The position numbers and the translations under genes are program-made. The notes below the pieces were generated by a model. It was given only the letters and a program-made list of their open reading frames with translations, was not told the origin of the DNA and ran no database searches. 32,427 nucleotides of DNA from a virus. This document shows, in pieces, positions 157 to 32,427 of this stretch (positions are counted from its first letter, which is position 1; each line of letters begins with the position of its first letter). The stretch covers positions 1 to 32,427 of the IMG/VR virus record IMGVR_UViG_3300000298_000020. One strand, 5' to 3'.

Positions 157-402
157 TCAAATCTCCATTATTCTCTCGCGCAGTTCTTTCACGCTCTCTC
201 CCGCTCCCGCTTTAATCCCGCGCTGTTCCATTACCTCTTTCAAGAGCTCGGGGACCGAAAGCAGCTGCTTATACCTGCCATACGAAAGCCCCAGCTTTCC
301 CGCTTCCGTCGTAAGCTCGTCTAATTTTGTGTGCGTCCTCTTAACTTTTCCGCTGTACAGCCGCGACGCCGTCAGGCTGTCTGTTATTGTCTTTTTACGC
401 AT
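157..402 (-). CDS. Hypothetical small basic protein (81 aa)
   Basis: ORF tightly packed between the C5-MTase and the repeat protein (stop at 157, next start at 154). No family recognised. Confidence 0.5.
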   Translation of the reverse strand: MRKKTITDSLTASRLYSGKVKRTHTKLDELTTEAGKLGLSYGRYKQLLSVPELLKEVMEQRGIKAGAGESVKELRERIMEI

Positions 403-1407: not shown

Positions 1408-2241
1408 CTAAATGACTATATCGTCTAAATTGTCGAAAAGGGCATTTAACTCCTCTGCGGTATATTTCCGCTCAGACCCTGTCTCTCGCGCCCTTTTTTC
1501 ATTTTTAGATGAAGATGCCTGCGTCCGCTCTCCGTCCTGCGCACGCCCAAGCCATGCCGTTACAAATCGCATAATGCCATTCGCAGTTTTCCGATGTCGA
1601 GGATTCCCCAACAGCCACCCCTGCATTTTTCGCATCTCCTGCTCCACGTCCACAGCCGGGTATAGCGGTGCAAGCTCATCAATCGTTCCTTGCGTTACTC
1701 CGAAATTTTTTCCGTTGTTCAAAATTAAATTTACAACGACATTTTCCGGCGTCGGCGTTTCGGACGACGCATATATACTTCTATTCTTTTCTTGTTCTAT
1801 TCTATTCTGTTCTATTGGTCGGGGAACGGTCGTCGAACATTCGGGGAGCATTCGGGGAACGGTCGGGGAATGGTCGTCGAAAGCGCAATTCTCCCCCTTA
1901 CCCCCATCAATCGGTGCGGGTATCCTGCTCGGTGTAGGCTTTTCGACTTTTTGCCATGTTTTCCAATTTCTGAAAGCGTAATATTCTCTGCCGTTCCGAG
2001 CGTAAAAATCAACGGACATTTTGGAGCCTATTTCTTTTAGGGTCTTACTCACGTCGGCTATTCTTAAACCCTCATCGTAGGGGAAAATCTTACCTTTCAG
2101 AACCTTGGCTGAGGCTTCGCCTCGACCTTCGTCGTCAGCCATGCTGAATAATCCTATGAACAACAACCGCCCTCGCTCACTTAACTCGCCAAAATTTTCG
2201 TCTGTCCATATTGACGGGTCAATCATTCTTTTGCGGGGCAT
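1408..2241 (-). CDS. Putative replication initiator / replisome-organizer-like protein
   Basis: N-terminal IDPSIWTDENFGELS..LLFIGLFSMADDEGR signature as seen in phage replication proteins. Sits at the end of the recombination/replication module. Contains an iteron cluster in its central linker. Confidence 0.55.
   Translation of the reverse strand: MPRKRMIDPSIWTDENFGELSERGRLLFIGLFSMADDEGRGEASAKVLKGKIFPYDEGLRIADVSKTLKEIGSKMSVDFYARNGREYYAFRNWKTWQKVEKPTPSRIPAPIDGGKGENCAFDDHSPTVPRMLPECSTTVPRPIEQNRIEQEKNRSIYASSETPTPENVVVNLILNNGKNFGVTQGTIDELAPLYPAVDVEQEMRKMQGWLLGNPRHRKTANGIMRFVTAWLGRAQDGERTQASSSKNEKRARETGSERKYTAEELNALFDNLDDIVI
1779..1881. repeat. Putative origin of replication: AT-rich TTCTAT repeats plus iterons phased at 11 bp
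   Basis: TTCTAT at 1779, 1795, 1800 and 1810. TCGGGGA at 1819, 1841, 1852 and 1863 (spacing 22, 11, 11). TCGGGGAACGGTCG at 1819 and 1852. GGTCGTCGAA at 1828 and 1872 (44 bp apart). Confidence 0.55.
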
Positions 2242-3085: not shown

Positions 3086-3490
3086 TTAAAACGGCAAGTC
3101 CATATCGTCGTCGTCTTCATCGGCGGGAGGCAAATCTTCTATCCGCTCCTGCACTTCCTCCTGCTTCCGCTCCGAAGCGGACGAGAGAAATTCGACGTTG
3201 TCCGCCACCACTTCAGCAACCGTCCTTTTGTTACCGTCCCTGTCCTCGTATGAGCGTATTTGCAGACTGCCCTCGACAGCCACCTGCTTGCCTTTGGTCA
3301 GATACCGGCAGCAATTGTCCGCAAGTGTCCGCCATGCCACTACGTTTATGAAATCCGTCTGCTTGTCTCCGTTGGCGTCCCTATATCGCCTGTCTACGGC
3401 TATAGTCATTCGCGCGACGCTTACGTCGCTTGCAGTGACCAGAAGCTCGGGCGACCTCGTTAAACGTCCTATAAGTGTAATCCTGTTCAT
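3086..3490 (-). CDS. ssb: Single-stranded DNA-binding protein
   Basis: OB-fold SSB pattern (MNRITLIGRLTRSPEL ... FINVVAWRTLADNC ... VAVEGSLQIRSYEDRDGNKRTVAEVVADNVEFL) and acidic tail ending DDDDMDLPF. Confidence 0.93.
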   Translation of the reverse strand: MNRITLIGRLTRSPELLVTASDVSVARMTIAVDRRYRDANGDKQTDFINVVAWRTLADNCCRYLTKGKQVAVEGSLQIRSYEDRDGNKRTVAEVVADNVEFLSSASERKQEEVQERIEDLPPADEDDDDMDLPF

Positions 3491-3494
3491 ATCC

Positions 3495-4031
3495 TTAATT
3501 CCTCCACGTTTCTTTTAATAGCGAAAGCTCTTCCGGCGTCATAGTCTCAATTCCAAGCTCTTTTGCGTCGCTGACGACGCCGTCTATAAGCCGAGCCATT
3601 TCAGCCATATCGTATGTGCTTGAGCCGTAATACACTTGCACCTGCACTCCTTTCTTGCCGTTCACTTCGACGTCGCCCAACACGACGGATGCCCGCCATT
3701 CTTCGCATACGCGCTCTACCGCCTGCGGCTTGACTATAAGGTGGGTAAACACGCCGTAATCCCGAAGCGCCTTTAAATACAGAGCTTCCTTATCCGTCTT
3801 GAGATTTGCCGCCATTTTGTCCAGCAATACCCACAGATAGGCGTTTGCGTCAAGACTGCGGCGCTTGCGGAAAGGCTTGACGGTCAACTCTATAAGCCGT
3901 CCGTTCTCAGCCCATTTTCGCGCTTTTAAAGCCGTCTCGCGGCATTCCTGCGTGCTTTGCCGGTCCGCCGTAAAGCATAGCTCACAGCGCCCCTCAAGGT
4001 CATATTTGACCGTGCAATCCGTCACTTTCAT
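3495..4031 (-). CDS. NinB/Orf-family recombination mediator-like protein
   Basis: KRRSLDANAYLWVLL aligns by eye with lambda NinB RNRSLDQNRKLWACL. A later GSSTYDMAEMARLIDGV segment resembles lambda GQSTSRMRVGEFAELLELI. Lies in the recombination module. Confidence 0.55.
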   Translation of the reverse strand: MKVTDCTVKYDLEGRCELCFTADRQSTQECRETALKARKWAENGRLIELTVKPFRKRRSLDANAYLWVLLDKMAANLKTDKEALYLKALRDYGVFTHLIVKPQAVERVCEEWRASVVLGDVEVNGKKGVQVQVYYGSSTYDMAEMARLIDGVVSDAKELGIETMTPEELSLLKETWRN

Positions 4032-7048: not shown

Positions 7049-8197
7049 ATGACTACGGAAAAGCTGTTAAAAGAACTATTAGGCAAGCTCGAGGGGTTGG
7101 AAAAGCAAATTGGCACAAATTCTACCTCGCAAACACAAGATTGGGCAGAAAACAGGTTTTTGAAATTCACCGAAAAGGAGATTTTACAAATGCCTAAAAA
7201 AATCAGAATAGTAATCCGTGAATGCGACTGCACGGTTTACGCCCGAAAAAGAACAACAGGGAGGTATAAATGTTCATACGAAATTCAATTTAATAGAAAA
7301 GGTTACCATATTTCCGCATCTGGCAGAACAAAAGAAGAAGCAAAAGCGCGTTTTATCGCAAAAGCAAAGGCTCTTGATATTCAACAAGGGAACGGCGCCA
7401 TTTCTGTTCCAACGAACTTTGATAAATTTGCAAATTACTGGTTTGAAAATTTTCATAAACGCAAAGTTGGAGCGAATACGTTTGAGCACGACATAAAGCT
7501 TTACAAGAGGCACATAAAAGAGCGCTTCGCAAAGTTTCCAGTAAATTACATAAATGCTGCTATGCTTCAATCATTTTTAGATGATTTTTCAGACCGCCCC
7601 AAAACGACAAAAGACTTGTTTTCGCTGCTTAACCAAATATTAAATATGGCAGTCAAGCACGGATTGATAAGATTAAACCCTATAAGTATTTGCATCATCA
7701 AAAATTATGAACAAAATCACGGGTCGTTAATCGATAAAGACGAGGAGTATAAGCTTCTTAACACTTATAAGGGGACTGAATGGGAATTGCCGTTTGCTAT
7801 TGCTATTTATACCGGGCTGCGCCCTAATGAATACGCATCAGCGATTATTGAAAATGATTTTATTAAAGCAGTAAACAGCAAGCGGCATAACAGTAACGGC
7901 AAGATTGAATATAAATATATTCCCATTACGCCAATGCTTCGTCCGTATTTGAAAGGTATAAACGAGCTGCCTGCAACGCCTAACTTGCAGAATTTAACCC
8001 GGCGGCTTAAAAAAGTGCTTCCCAATCACAAATTATATGATTTGCGCACCACTTTTCAAACGCGTTGCACAGAGTGTGGAATTACTGACAGTGTTATCGG
8101 TGTATGGATGGGCAATTCCATAGGCAAATTAAAAGAAGCTTATACAGATTTTTCAAAAAGCTTTTTATTAAAAGAAGCGGAGAAATTTCTCTATTGA
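7049..8197 (+). CDS. int: Tyrosine recombinase / phage integrase
   Basis: YTGLRPNE (catalytic Arg region), LYDLRTTF (xxLR box), GVWMGN and KEAYTDF (candidate Tyr). AAGGAGG RBS. The attP-like region follows directly. Confidence 0.85.
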   Translation: MTTEKLLKELLGKLEGLEKQIGTNSTSQTQDWAENRFLKFTEKEILQMPKKIRIVIRECDCTVYARKRTTGRYKCSYEIQFNRKGYHISASGRTKEEAKARFIAKAKALDIQQGNGAISVPTNFDKFANYWFENFHKRKVGANTFEHDIKLYKRHIKERFAKFPVNYINAAMLQSFLDDFSDRPKTTKDLFSLLNQILNMAVKHGLIRLNPISICIIKNYEQNHGSLIDKDEEYKLLNTYKGTEWELPFAIAIYTGLRPNEYASAIIENDFIKAVNSKRHNSNGKIEYKYIPITPMLRPYLKGINELPATPNLQNLTRRLKKVLPNHKLYDLRTTFQTRCTECGITDSVIGVWMGNSIGKLKEAYTDFSKSFLLKEAEKFLY

Positions 8198-8462
8198 ATA
8201 CCCTAAAATACCCTATATTTTCAATAGCATGTTAATGTTCTAACATGCGAAAAGTGCCCCAAATAGGGCAAAAACAGTGATAAAACACCCAAATTTTCAT
8301 TATTTTACCCTATTTAGGAGCACAAATTTAGGTTCGAGTCCCATCATCTCCACCAAAAAATGAGGTAAAATCAGTGATTTTATCTCTTTTTTTATCGTTT
8401 TTTGCCCTATTTTCTAAAATTTAGGGTCAATATTTAAGATGTACCCTAAATGTACCCTAAAT
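8198..8462 (+). other. attP region with arm-type repeats
   Basis: CCCTA(A/T)(A/T)T-type motifs occur on both sides of the tRNA-like core. They include ATACCCTAAA 8198, ATACCCTATA 8208, TACCCTATTT 8306 and GCCCTATTTT 8404. There is an inverted copy at 8419-8427 and a tandem GTACCCTAAAT at 8441 and 8452. An 8-bp inverted repeat GCATGTTA/TAACATGC lies at 8227-8248. Confidence 0.65.
8331..8355 (+). other. tRNA 3-prime-end fragment (T-loop, acceptor 3-prime strand, CCA): probable attP core
   Basis: GGTTCGAGTCCCATCATCTCCACCA. No matching 5-prime acceptor strand or other arms are present upstream, so this is not a full tRNA gene. It is followed by a hairpin at 8363-8385 plus a T7 run at 8387-8393, which would replace the host tRNA terminator. 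Confidence 0.7.
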
Positions 8463-29738: not shown

Positions 29739-30426
29739 TTATCGGACAAACATCCTCAGCTGTCCGCTTGACTCTTCCCCTTTTAAGCGATTACAGGCAA
29801 TCCTATACCACTCCTTGTTTTTCTCAAAACCTATGTAGCTACGTCCATTTTTTATGGCGGCAACTGCCGTTGTTCCGCTACCTATGAACGGGTCTAATAT
29901 AATGTCACCCGGTTGCGAGGCGTGGAGTATGTGACGTTCTACAAACTCTAACGGCTTTATTGTGGGGTGAGAATATTTCTCCTTATCCGCTTTATTTATT
30001 GAACTGTTGTACCATTTGCTTTTTAACTCATATCCGTTATTTAAATTTACTCCCGAATCTCTGAAATGCAGACATATTTCAATATCTTCCAAATACCGTT
30101 GATTGCAAGTCGGAATAGGATTATTTTTCGTCCACACAAGCAACGTGTAGTTATAATTTTTAAAAAAATTTAAAACATCCCGCATTTGCAAACGACTGCA
30201 CCAGATGAATATATTTGTTTTTTTGCATACTCGAATAAAATCGTGGAATATAGAATAAGCAATACCATTACTTATTTCTTTTAGCGACTCTTCCATTTTC
30301 TTCGACGGAAACTCCACCTTGCATATACAGATATGGAATATCTGTGTATATCATGTCTACGCTTTTATCCGGGATTTCCTTAATAAGTTCAAAAGCATCG
30401 CCCAAAAGTATTTTATTTAATAGCAT
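29739..30426 (-). pseudogene. Beta-class N6-adenine/N4-cytosine DNA methyltransferase with a +1 frame break
   Basis: The N-terminal frame carries SVDMIYTDIPY, a DPPY-type motif IV. The second frame carries HPTIKPLEFVERHI and DPFIGSGTTAVAA (motif I). The frames meet near 30306-30315 (QGGVS / FPSKKMEE), and one extra nucleotide is required. Confidence 0.75.
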
Positions 30427-30497
30427 AGTATCTCTATTTTTTCTCCCTGTTTTATTCTTTGCCGTTTTAGTATTTGAAAATTCGTAAACAAACCTCG

Positions 30498-30743
30498 TCA
30501 ATCTATCCCGTCGCAATGTCTATATTTTTCAAACATACATTCCTTAGCATACTTGACGCTGTTTCTGTCATATTCTTCGGACGTGCAGGGCAATTTCGTA
30601 TACGGGTCTTCCTTAAGCCCATACCTTTCTATCATTTCGTCGAAAAATTCTCTTGGGACGCATATGCCGCTGAAAATTAAATTTTCCAAAAAATCAACCG
30701 CAATCCTTTGTTCCTTTTCCGTTAATGTTGTTTTGCGCTTCAT
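30498..30743 (-). CDS. Hypothetical protein (81 aa)
   Basis: ORF between repeat-protein paralog 1 and the N6/N4-MTase. Confidence 0.45.
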   Translation of the reverse strand: MKRKTTLTEKEQRIAVDFLENLIFSGICVPREFFDEMIERYGLKEDPYTKLPCTSEEYDRNSVKYAKECMFEKYRHCDGID

Positions 30744-31289
30744 TTGCTCTAGGCTCCTCTATAGTTTCAACGCCAAAATGTACTTTTATCAACTCAATTA
30801 CAAGATTATATTCTTTCCCGAATTTACTATCACTGTGTTTGCTTTTAACTGCCTCTGCGAAATCCTCTATAGTTCCGAAAAAGCAGCCGCATGATATTTT
30901 GATATCGCTGTTTTTACATCTGAAAGCTGTTGTCGTGCCCAAACGTGAGCCTATTTTTGAAATCCAAATTATATCTGCATTGCCATAGACCCATGCATCG
31001 CCAGAGACCTCTGCATCGCCATAGACCCATGCATCGCCATAGACCTTTGCATCGCCATAGACCTTTGCATCGCCATAGACCTTTGCATTGCCATAGACCC
31101 ATGCATCGCCATAGACCCATGCATTGCCAGAGACCCATGCGTTGCCATCTTGTGAGAAAGATTGCTTTCTTTTTCAATCCAACCTCCTAAATCTCCGACT
31201 TTGACTGAACCAAAATTGGCAAGACTTTCAATTTGAAACAATGTCCTACCATATTTTTCTATCTTGTTATCGGTGAGTTTGTATTTCAT
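30694..31289 (-). pseudogene. Hexapeptide-repeat (left-handed beta-helix/bactofilin-like) protein, paralog 1, with a -1/+2 frame break
   Basis: Frame 0 starts at ATG 31289 (GAGGAG RBS) and reads MKYKLTDNKIEKYGRTLFQIESLANFGSVKVGDLGGWIEKESNLS. The -1 frame has no start codon and so is invisible in the ORF track. It reads [99 protein letters not shown] and continues to the stop at 30694. Confidence 0.75.
30979..31149 (-). repeat. 18-bp tandem repeat (about 9.5 units) encoding G-[ND]-A-x-V-[YS]
   Basis: Units start at 30979, 30997, 31015, 31033, 31051, 31069, 31087, 31105 and 31123. Four of the six reading frames stay open across the array. Confidence 0.9.
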
Positions 31290-31506
31290 CTTTTTTCTCC
31301 TCTTTCTTCGGCGGCTTGCAACCGTCCTCACACTCTCTTATTTCGGGGTATTCGCGAGGAATGTAGCAGTCATACCGGGATACCAGCTCCTCGCGCATAC
31401 ACACGCAATAATCTTCGCAGGTTACCAAATCGGCGCAGTCCTCGCAAAAAACAACGTCATTTCGCAACAGACAATCGACGTTGCAACTCTCACAGTAATT
31501 TTTCAT
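31267..31506 (-). CDS. Cys-rich acidic small protein (79 aa, 12 Cys)
   Basis: Translation begins MKNYCESCNVDCLLRNDVVFCEDCADLVTCEDYCVCMRE. No family recognised. Confidence 0.5.
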   Translation of the reverse strand: MKNYCESCNVDCLLRNDVVFCEDCADLVTCEDYCVCMREELVSRYDCYIPREYPEIRECEDGCKPPKKEEKKDEIQTHR

Positions 31507-31865
31507 TCTTTAACCTCACACAATGCTCTCGCCCATCGCTGCTTTTTGCACGTAGGCGCCGAAGTATTTCTTGGTCGGCTTTCCCTACTCCAGCTCCCTC
31601 CGCCGCAAGAGGATGTCTCTAGCTTCCACCCCGAAGCGACAAGGCTATTCCCGTTTTCCTCGTCAAGAATATATGTAATTATTTTGCTATAACCAAGCTC
31701 CTTAGCCACCCTTGCGCATTTCGAATAAAGAAATGAACACGCATTCTTGACTCCGTCCAAAACGCACAAACGCACTACCTCAAGCGTTTCCCCGTCATCT
31801 AAATGCCGGGACACAGGACGTCCTACTTGTGCCACCCTACTCAATACAACGCCTCGCACGCACAA
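31503..31865 (-). CDS. GNAT-fold-like protein (resembles the XF1762-type phage family), apparently N-terminally truncated
   Basis: GRPVSRHLDDGETLEVVRLCV..NACSFLYSKCARVAKELGYSKIITYILDEENGNSLVASGWK..GGGSWSRESRPR..KKQRW matches my recollection of that family core. No ATG start. There is a stop codon immediately upstream in frame. Confidence 0.4.
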   Translation of the reverse strand: MCVRGVVLSRVAQVGRPVSRHLDDGETLEVVRLCVLDGVKNACSFLYSKCARVAKELGYSKIITYILDEENGNSLVASGWKLETSSCGGGSWSRESRPRNTSAPTCKKQRWARALCEVKE

Positions 31866-31936
31866 TCTTTACTGCAATAACGATTGCTTTTATTATCGTC
31901 GAAATATTTGACTTGCAAATAATCATCAAAAAACAT
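31841..31936 (-). CDS. Possible 31-aa ORF with RYCSKDC segment
   Basis: Translation is MFFDDYLQVKYFDDNKSNRYCSKDCACEALY. Weak RBS. Overlaps the annotated start of the GNAT-like ORF. Confidence 0.2.
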   Translation of the reverse strand: MFFDDYLQVKYFDDNKSNRYCSKDCACEALY

Positions 31937-31991
31937 ATACGCTTCTTTGTGAAGCTTTTCCCCTCAATTTGCGCATTAAAATTGCTTTCAT

Positions 31992-32427
31992 CTACATCAC
32001 CGCCTTGACGTATTTAATCGCCTCAATGTACTCTTTTCTGTACTTTTTGTTTCTTGCGTGCGTTTCGTTTACTTTTTTCTCAAAATCCGCTATCGTTCCG
32101 AAAAAGCAGCCGCACCGGACATAGATGTCTGTCGCGGTTTTGAAAAAATACGTACAGCCGAGACGTGAACCTATACGGTCAATTTTTAAAAATCGGAGCG
32201 TCGTTTCGGACATGCCTTCATATTTTATCCCCTCGCCGAAGCTACACCTCTCGCCGAAGCTACACCTCTCGCCGAAGCTACACCCCTCGCCGAAGCTACA
32301 CTCCTCGCCGAAGCTACACCACTCGCCGAAGCTGCACCCCTCGCCGAAGCTACACCTCTTGCCGAAGCTACACCCCTCGCCGAAGCTGCACCACTCGCCG
32401 AAGCTACACCTCTTGCCGAAGCTACAC
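31992..32427 (-). CDS. C-terminal part of Cys-containing hexapeptide-repeat protein (paralog 2)
   Basis: In frame with the listed ORF 31992-32213. Upstream, the same frame reads (E/K)xCSFG repeats, then [80 protein letters not shown]. The C-terminal domain is paralogous to that of 30694-31289. Confidence 0.75.
32234..32427 (-). repeat. 18-bp tandem repeat array (10 full units plus one partial; 12 units after circular closure)
   Basis: Units start at 32234 and every 18 bp up to 32414. The consensus is gccgaagctacacc-n-c-n-c. Confidence 0.92.

Follow-up and report, generated by a model that had tools for sequence, protein, structure and literature searches.

We analyzed a 32,427-nt viral contig (IMG/VR record IMGVR_UViG_3300000298_000020, positions 1 to 32,427; referred to here as the window) with respect to a tandem repeat located at both of its ends and the gene that carries it, which is referred to here as the CSFG gene. 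The repeat was shown to be an in-frame, 18-bp variable-number tandem repeat located in an accessory gene that codes for protein and belongs to a temperate tailed phage of gut Clostridia. The genes of the window include those for a large terminase, a portal protein, tail proteins, a tyrosine integrase, an exonuclease, a replication initiator, and DNA methyltransferases. Because both window ends lie in the CSFG gene in the same orientation, the molecule is circular or circularly permuted. A tblastn search of a cultured-phage collection returned one weak partial match, a megablast search with 24 kb returned none, and no annotated relative was found in that collection.

Tandem Repeats Finder detected a period-18 array at positions 32229 to 32427 (11.1 copies; 90% matches; score, 321), and the same array carried on at positions 1 to 54 (3.0 copies). 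Exact overlaps of 11 nt and 29 nt were present between the two window ends, the longer one consisting of a duplicate of positions 1 to 29 at positions 32399 to 32427. A raw end-to-end join broke the minus-strand frame. Merging the 29-nt overlap resulted in a single minus-strand open reading frame (ORF) of 186 amino acids, from an ATG at positions 154 to 152 to a stop codon at positions 31994 to 31992, with the frame unbroken from the ATG through both flanks of the array. Another open frame of the array, encoding ARGVAS units, was rejected, as it is closed just beyond the array. From its 5′ end, the gene (all parts on the minus strand) comprises an N-terminal cap (codons 1 to 34, MKIYTIEDLKNFERDKNGRLICPSGDYSLIKEFS; positions 53 to 154), the first part of the array (i.e., units ER, EK, and most of KR; positions 1 to 52), the remaining array of approximately 10.7 units (positions 32235 to 32427, by unit parsing), and a 3′ part (positions 31992 to 32234) that encodes two degenerate closing hexads and a C-terminal α/β domain with the motif IGSR…RCGCFFGT…ETH…EY.

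Each unit consists of two variable residues (x1 and x2) followed by CSFG, and the 29-nt merge produced 12 units in the order ER EK KR EW EG KR EG EW EE EG ER ER. An initial annotation, made before any search, had listed the same units, given this merge; the range it assigned to them (positions 32234 to 32427) covers approximately 10.7 units, the others being located at positions 1 to 52. Merging the 11-nt overlap instead resulted in 13 units, with one additional KR. Because the end overlap falls in a KR unit, a type that is present twice, and because both contig ends lie within the array, twelve units represent a lower-bound closure and not a measurement; 12, 13, or more units are possible. 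The annotated count of twelve is thus obtained with one of the two merges and is not an established number. Evidently, the repeat caused the contig to break. Neither the 186-aa product nor a 192-aa product had an exact entry in a collection of 15 billion proteins.

Variation among the units of the window was found at nucleotides 1, 4, and 5 (codons 1 and 2), where every change is nonsynonymous, and at nucleotide 9, where two units exhibit a synonymous TGT/TGC change. The remaining 14 positions are invariant, in agreement with the annotated confinement of variation to two codons plus two TGT/TGC changes. The probability that at least three of four variable sites fall by chance in the first 6 nt is approximately 0.08 (hand calculation, 255/3,060). 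Accordingly graded, the clustering of variable sites is suggestive but not significant within this one array, and it is significant across the relatives described below.

A protein search identified 1,356 relatives (E ≤ 1e-3), corresponding to about that many clusters at 90% identity. Their lengths range from 132 to 313 aa in 6-aa steps, and all share three parts, namely, an N-terminal cap (M-K-x-Y-T…ICPSGDY…F), an array of CxFGxx hexapeptides, and a conserved C-terminal domain (IGSR…VRCGCFFGT…THx…EY). The relatives occur in phages and prophages of gut Clostridia, and the hosts of the gene in representative genomes are metagenome-assembled genomes of this group (Christensenella, Oscillospiraceae, Acutalibacteraceae, and Eubacteriales). 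A unit profile compiled from 1,500 units of 116 proteins was dominated by Cys at position 3 (92%; entropy, 0.59 bits), Phe at position 5 (95%; 0.37 bits), and Gly at position 6 (76%; 1.37 bits). Position x1 was mostly Glu or Lys (E, 51%; K, 16%; together, 67%; 2.54 bits), x2 was hypervariable (3.67 bits), and position 4 was Ser in 57% of units (2.50 bits), being variable too in older arrays. The variable pair noted in the window is thus the variable pair of the whole family, with higher entropy than the conserved C, F, and G. The longest array in the family contains 39 units (L015).

We next consider the phages most similar to the window, whose flanks are 97 to 100% identical to it where aligned (L001 to L003 and L026 also include segments of 90 to 96% identity). 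Their arrays contain 1 unit (P0069; an ER unit that reads ERCRFG), 2 units (L027 and L028; ER ER), 3 units (L006 and L007, ER EK KR; L004, ER EK ER), 6 units (L001 to L003; ER EK KR EG EW ER), or 12 units (L005 and L026, in which the array is internal to the contig; ER EK KR EG EW EE EG EK EK ER EW ER), compared with 12 or 13 in the window, depending on the merge. L004, a 462-kb prophage-bearing contig, is 99.97% identical to the window over 3.2 kb. With the exception of the ERCRFG of P0069, only six unit types occur across these alleles, and the alleles have blocks in common, such as EG(TGC)-EW-EE-EG. Such sharing of unit types and blocks is what slippage or unequal recombination would be expected to leave. 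Single k-mers span the L004 allele, as its array measures 54 nt and the contig was assembled at k = 141; the short alleles, being shorter than the assembly k-mer, are supported by reads and are not collapse artefacts. The expansion, contraction, and unit shuffling anticipated from the near identity of the units are therefore found among near-identical phages.

The fold of the CSFG protein was predicted by AlphaFold2 with a 94-sequence alignment (predicted local distance difference test [pLDDT], 94.4; predicted template modeling score, 0.83). DSSP assigned a strand every six residues from residue 20 to residue 111 of the model, each of those in the array being a two-residue Ser-Phe strand; approximately two degenerate hexads close the array and are followed by a domain of four strands and two helices. 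In the cap, three cryptic hexads place I21, Y27, and F33 at the position of the unit Phe (DSSP strands at 20 to 22, 26, and 32 to 33; spacing, 6). Among 94 homologs, cap residues P23, D26, Y27, and F33 are invariant, and C22 and G25 are at least 90% conserved. Each unit is thereby predicted to form one hexapeptide rung (x1-x2-C-S-F-G) of a rigid, rod-shaped β-solenoid, as the initial annotation had proposed. The BFVD matches described below, named mostly for β-solenoid repeat families, likewise speak for a solenoid. Helices with a 6-residue period have several hexapeptides per turn, three in left-handed β-helix (LβH) and bactofilin folds. Here, the most likely form, on the basis of the model and of the motif register, is a triangular helix of the LβH type in which three hexapeptides make up a turn, and left-handedness is favored only by a set of weak sequence matches.

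These matches include Pfam Hexapep (PF00132), which the window protein hits below threshold (E = 0.0058; 16.7 bits versus a cutoff of 27), the register F-G-x-x-C-S being compatible with the Hexapep pattern [LIV]-[GAED]-X2-[STAV]-X. LbH_EIF2B and GMPPB_C were further subthreshold Pfam matches, the LpxD model of NCBIfam matched at 6.1e-5 (below the family cutoff), and a profile search against PDB sequences gave LpxA (0.032) and LpxD (0.085) as its best matches, neither of which is significant. The LpxA and LpxD matches cover the repeat region only. P0181, a full-length homolog with NxIGxx units, aligns with the window protein from end to end and in register (BLASTP, 5e-23; C↔N, F↔I, and G↔G); it passes Pfam Hexapep (33.2 bits versus 27) and matches NeuD, LpxA, and LpxD at approximately 1e-8. 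With regard to three hexads per turn, an excess of identity was found at unit position 4 at a lag of three units (z = 5.2), which is confounded by block duplications and shared ancestry. Together with the three cryptic cap hexads, this signal is only suggestive. Unit counts modulo 3 (hand count) gave a weak multiple-of-3 signal that is subject to the same confounding, and neither of the two signals was relied on. Bactofilin (PF04519) was not matched in Pfam at E ≤ 1, and the YdcK repeat (PF18836) was not matched by the CSFG protein. Of the LβH/bactofilin-like fold originally suggested, the β-solenoid is predicted with high confidence, and an LβH type is favored by weak matches.

Considering the fold predicted here, the register of the LβH motif, and how well C, F, and G are conserved, we propose that Cys and Phe would pack in the core and Gly would make the turn, with x1 (E/K) and x2 exposed at the corners. 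The cap would already hold one degenerate turn, and the C-terminal α/β domain would follow the solenoid. The approximately 65 C-terminal residues belong to a PHROG family with no assigned function (phrog_20532, 1.2e-12; phrog_7964, 1.3e-6). A profile of this domain detected 3,229 cluster representatives (clusters at 50% identity) at E ≤ 1e-3 and 1,338 at ≤1e-10, and in all but a few of the 3,229 the domain is located at or near the C terminus. It occurs behind CxFGxx arrays, YdcK-type AxVxGx arrays, and true pentapeptide repeats (P0151). Modeled alone with AlphaFold2, it again formed four strands and two helices (pLDDT, 94.4). No solved relative was found, either by Foldseek against the PDB (best E = 1.5) or by a hidden Markov model search of PDB sequences (not significant), and we regard the modeled domain as structurally novel.

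Nucleotide diversity within arrays, averaged over 16 independent arrays, was 0.64 at nucleotide 4 (the first base of the x2 codon) and 0.40 at nucleotide 5, compared with 0.23 to 0.33 at the third positions of conserved codons and 0.01 to 0.05 at codon positions 1 and 2 of Cys and Phe. Diversity at nucleotide 4 exceeded that at synonymous third positions in 15 of the 16 arrays (sign test by hand; p ~3e-4). Neighboring units also avoid identical residues at x1 (z = −3.5) and x2 (z = −5.3). Judged from these sequence comparisons, x2 is kept diverse while the units are homogenized elsewhere, which is a signature of diversifying selection. Selection retains C, F, and G and keeps x2 more diverse than synonymous sites, and the variation in length and order likely arises from replication slippage or unequal recombination between near-identical units.

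Taken as a whole, the coding hexapeptide array probably builds the β-solenoid of an accessory protein of a gut-Clostridia phage, and this protein is tentatively taken to bind a host factor. The structural and evolutionary parts of this description are well supported. As for function, the architecture, the selection pattern, and the neighborhood (DNA methyltransferase, Mom-like, and PAPS-reductase genes) point, tentatively, to a cytoplasmic nonstructural protein whose C-terminal domain may engage a conserved partner and whose solenoid may serve as an adjustable binding surface or decoy for a host factor that evolves fast, plausibly in counter-defense.

Several observations weigh against this interpretation. 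A Foldseek search of the PDB with the whole model gave no match below E = 1e-3, its top list consisted mostly of right-handed solenoids and was led by them (SV2 luminal domain, CAP, and ice-binding proteins), and a true LβH (AntD) first appeared at rank 41. The copy numbers come from short-read assemblies, which are prone to array collapse, and the longer counts are uncertain; one relative (L012) contains a run of N within its array. Alleles of 1 to 3 units exist, so that a long solenoid is not essential for persistence of the gene. The CSFG protein had no match above threshold in Pfam or NCBIfam, PADLOC returned 0 families at E ≤ 0.1, and the literature searched for the protein or the repeat held nothing relevant except NeuO as an analogy, consistent with the initial annotation, to which no characterized CSFG-type hexapeptide was known. 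Gene neighborhood is the sole ground for the counter-defense idea, and the arrays are only mildly acidic (median, −0.33 charge per unit). Classic DNA mimicry is not indicated by arrays of this charge.

The most serious alternative, although we consider it rather unlikely, is that the solenoid is a neutral spacer, that function resides in the C-terminal domain, and that the variation in length and surface is an unselected by-product of an unstable repeat. It would account well for the persistence of 1-, 2-, and 3-unit alleles in otherwise intact phages, for the existence of the C-terminal domain alone in proteins of 66 to 90 aa, and for the decayed genes nearby (i.e., the frameshifted paralog and the methyltransferase with a 23-nt deletion described below). 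A neutral spacer would not be expected to show the strong conservation of C, F, and G across 1,500 units, the excess of x2 diversity over synonymous diversity, the avoidance of identical residues in adjacent units, or the maintenance of arrays of up to 39 units.

A more specific form of the host-factor reading, which we put forward as speculative, is diversification by repeat shuffling without a retroelement. Acting on a limited set of 18-bp unit types, slippage and unequal recombination would produce corner surfaces and helix lengths in many combinations. These would be tuned by selection on x2 against a fast-evolving host target, possibly a host defense protein, and the C-terminal domain would deliver the effect. 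Such a system would be analogous in logic to variable leucine-rich repeat receptors.

It is improbable that the array instead forms a right-handed helix that is quadrilateral like that of pentapeptide repeats but has each face longer by one residue, and that it acts as a DNA mimic, for example, to counter restriction enzymes or protect a topoisomerase. Pentapeptide repeats follow the pattern [A/C/S/T/V]-[D/N]-[L/F]-[S/T/R]-[G], which C-S-F-G-E resembles. Pentapeptide-repeat proteins (Qnr, MfpA, and the SV2 luminal domain) likewise are β-solenoids with a core of Phe/Leu and small residues, the repeats in front of this C-terminal domain in P0151 are true pentapeptide repeats, and genes for DNA modification are neighbors of the CSFG gene. 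The top Foldseek matches in the PDB were SV2 luminal domains and a pentapeptide-repeat protein, but these were not significant (template modeling score, ≤0.3; root mean square deviation, 8 to 12 Å). Against the BFVD, Foldseek found 11 matches below 1e-3, mostly phage proteins named for β-solenoid repeat families; the names were mixed (hexapeptide, bactofilin, and, in several cases, pentapeptide repeat), and one was a "polymer-forming cytoskeletal protein." The strict period of the CSFG array (exactly 18 nt, i.e., 6 aa) differs from the period of 5 in pentapeptide repeats, no pentapeptide match (PF00805/PF13599) was obtained in Pfam at E ≤ 1 or in NCBIfam at 0.1, whereas LβH models do match, and the net charge of the CSFG protein is mildly negative only, not markedly acidic.

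The near invariance of Cys raises the question of whether the cysteines are themselves functional, as metal ligands (Zn, Fe, or Cu) arranged in a ladder, as redox-active thiols, or in zinc-finger-like units; this we consider quite improbable. Cys is conserved far more strictly (92%) than is usual at the small-residue position of hexapeptide repeats, and zf-CCCH_2, of the CCCH zinc fingers (PF14608 and relatives), was matched below threshold (1.3e-4; 22.8 bits versus a cutoff of 25.8). However, the units contain no His or second ligand, the C-x5-C spacing alone explains the CCCH matches, and the AlphaFold2 model is highly confident without metal. Moreover, Cys is not universal, as subfamilies with the same caps have SxFGxx (P0145), CSFAxx (P0140), or NxIGxx (P0181) units. 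As the residue at that position is Ser (P0145), Ala, or Asn (P0181) in sister subfamilies, a small buried residue is a better account of the pattern than special chemistry, and metal binding by Cys is not favored. The initial annotation had placed the 12 cysteines in one stacked line and the variable pair on one exposed face. With several hexapeptides per turn, the cysteines would form several ladders instead of one line, and the variable pairs would be distributed over several corners. The antifreeze protein of Tenebrio molitor is also a β-helix with Cys at every sixth residue, but it has 12-residue coils, TCT motifs, and disulfides, has no Phe core, and is a secreted eukaryotic protein.

That the protein is an LβH acyltransferase such as NeuO, LpxA, or LpxD is very improbable. 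It would fit the weak LpxD and LpxA matches, the automatic JGI names of two homologs, and the precedent of NeuO of prophage CUS-3, a prophage hexapeptide-repeat LβH enzyme whose gene has a variable-number tandem repeat (PMC3046976). The scores, however, are approximately 10 times under the family cutoffs (22 bits versus 207), the repeat motif alone matches, no extra loops or flanking catalytic domain are visible, and arrays of 1 to 3 units exist. In NeuO, what varies is a 7-nt tract located at the 5′ end, by which the reading frame is turned on or off; the 18-nt CSFG unit, in contrast, is always in frame, and the repeat itself is the solenoid. The CSFG units resemble hexapeptide LβH proteins (PF00132; LpxA, LpxD, and NeuD) in their strict 6-residue period and in that their [small]-x-[hydrophobic]-G-x-x register maps onto [STAV]-x-[LIV]-G-x-x. 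They differ in having Phe in place of Leu/Ile/Val, a nearly invariant Cys, no enzyme domain or active-site loops, units that are near-identical in DNA and variable in number, and no solved LβH near the model in Foldseek. An assembly artefact or a target of a diversity-generating retroelement hardly merits consideration, since, although both contig ends stop within the array, L012 has its gap there, and variation is confined to few positions, this array also occurs in the interior of contigs that come from several independent samples, no reverse transcriptase was found among ten further large ORFs scanned against Pfam, the window contains no template copy of the array, and the A positions at nucleotides 2 and 10 are invariant, which is incompatible with adenine-specific mutagenesis.

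One kilobase from the CSFG gene, the window contains a YdcK-type paralog with WVYGDA units (positions 30694 to 31289, minus strand), recognized by Tandem Repeats Finder, frame analysis, and PF18836, within which lies a second 18-nt array (9.6 copies; positions 30976 to 31148, minus strand). YdcK-type phage proteins (PF18836; PHROGs 5070 and 7964) share with the CSFG protein the architecture, the C-terminal domain, and an 18-nt array, and differ from it in their N-terminal domain and in their unit, A-x-V-x-G-x. The paralog is split over two frames near position 31150, its repeat and C-terminal part being in a different frame from the N-terminal domain (phrog_5070, 20149, and 7964). When one base was restored after AAG near position 31150, the product passed PF18836 (35.3 bits versus 30), matched YdcK_fam at 2.4e-16, and aligned with the CSFG protein (BLASTP, 6e-17); a −1 shift after AAG gives back the family consensus NLSHK-DGNAWV. 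The split may reflect the loss of one base, decay to a pseudogene, or an error in sequencing, and a viral-contig search found no intact version of the paralog.

A 32-nt stretch of the CSFG gene that encodes GCFFGT (positions 32083 to 32114) is 94% identical to positions 30860 to 30891 in the paralog. In L001, a 113-aa chimera (positions 3454 to 3795) consists of an unrelated N terminus and the second half of the C-terminal domain, joined at GCFFGT. This suggests that the GCFFGT stretch is a likely recombination point or hotspot. Solenoid paralogs tend to cluster in phages: among L019, L023, L021, and L022, some phages have two CSFG-type genes a few kilobases apart, and a CSFG-type gene followed by two genes with faint PF18836 matches was also seen.

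Directly upstream of the CSFG gene, an 81-aa ORF (positions 157 to 402, minus strand) ends 2 nt before the CSFG ATG (TGA-AA-ATG junction), and the two are probably cotranslated. The 81-aa gene is conserved in this position, preceding the homolog in L004 and also in L006; the two are separated by a PAPS-reductase gene in L001. In the window and in the genomes of its relatives, the CSFG gene is always found in the early/accessory region. Its neighbors in this lineage are C5 and N6/N4 DNA methyltransferase genes and a Mom-like gene, with a PAPS-reductase-like gene in relatives as well. Relative to a 236-aa gene of L001, the N6/N4 methyltransferase (positions 29739 to 30516, minus strand) has a 23-nt deletion at about positions 30268 to 30317, which splits it into two overlapping ORFs, and it is probably inactivated. 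The Mom-like ORF (120 aa, TTG start; region 31503 to 31991, minus strand) matches only positions 63 to 176 of a 245-position profile; between it and the CSFG stop codon, several stops follow a short "MKAIL…" start, and the region looks decayed or mosaic. A 79-aa ORF very rich in Cys, Asp, and Glu (MKNYCESCNVDCLL…; positions 31267 to 31506, minus strand) lies between the Mom-like gene and the YdcK-type paralog.

Elsewhere in the window, the replication-initiator gene (positions 1408 to 2241, minus strand) holds two adjacent repeats at positions 1779 to 1881, i.e., TTCTA (7.4 copies; 1779 to 1816) and GGTCGGGGAAC (5.5 copies; 1817 to 1876), which could be iterons of an origin within the initiator gene. 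Direct repeats containing ACCCTAA are present just downstream of the integrase gene (positions 7049 to 8197, plus strand), at positions 8197 to 8215 and 8439 to 8462 (AATACCCTAA, 1.9 copies; ATGTACCCTAA, 2.2 copies), and could be integrase arm-binding sites or an attP region. The early region of L004 is near-identical to that of the window, yet its prophage has a serine recombinase, where the window has the tyrosine integrase, and its late region differs as well; mosaicism among the modules is strong.

Arrays of this kind are places where contigs break or collapse, and copy numbers taken from short-read metagenomes are accordingly unreliable. If the structural prediction is true, the CSFG array would be an undescribed Cys/Phe-core version of the hexapeptide β-helix in a widespread phage family, and this family would offer a natural scaffold whose length can be tuned. 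A change in length between near-identical phages combined with a diversifying x2 is typical of molecules involved in host-phage conflict, and the family would be a testable candidate for a new class of phage accessory/counter-defense proteins.

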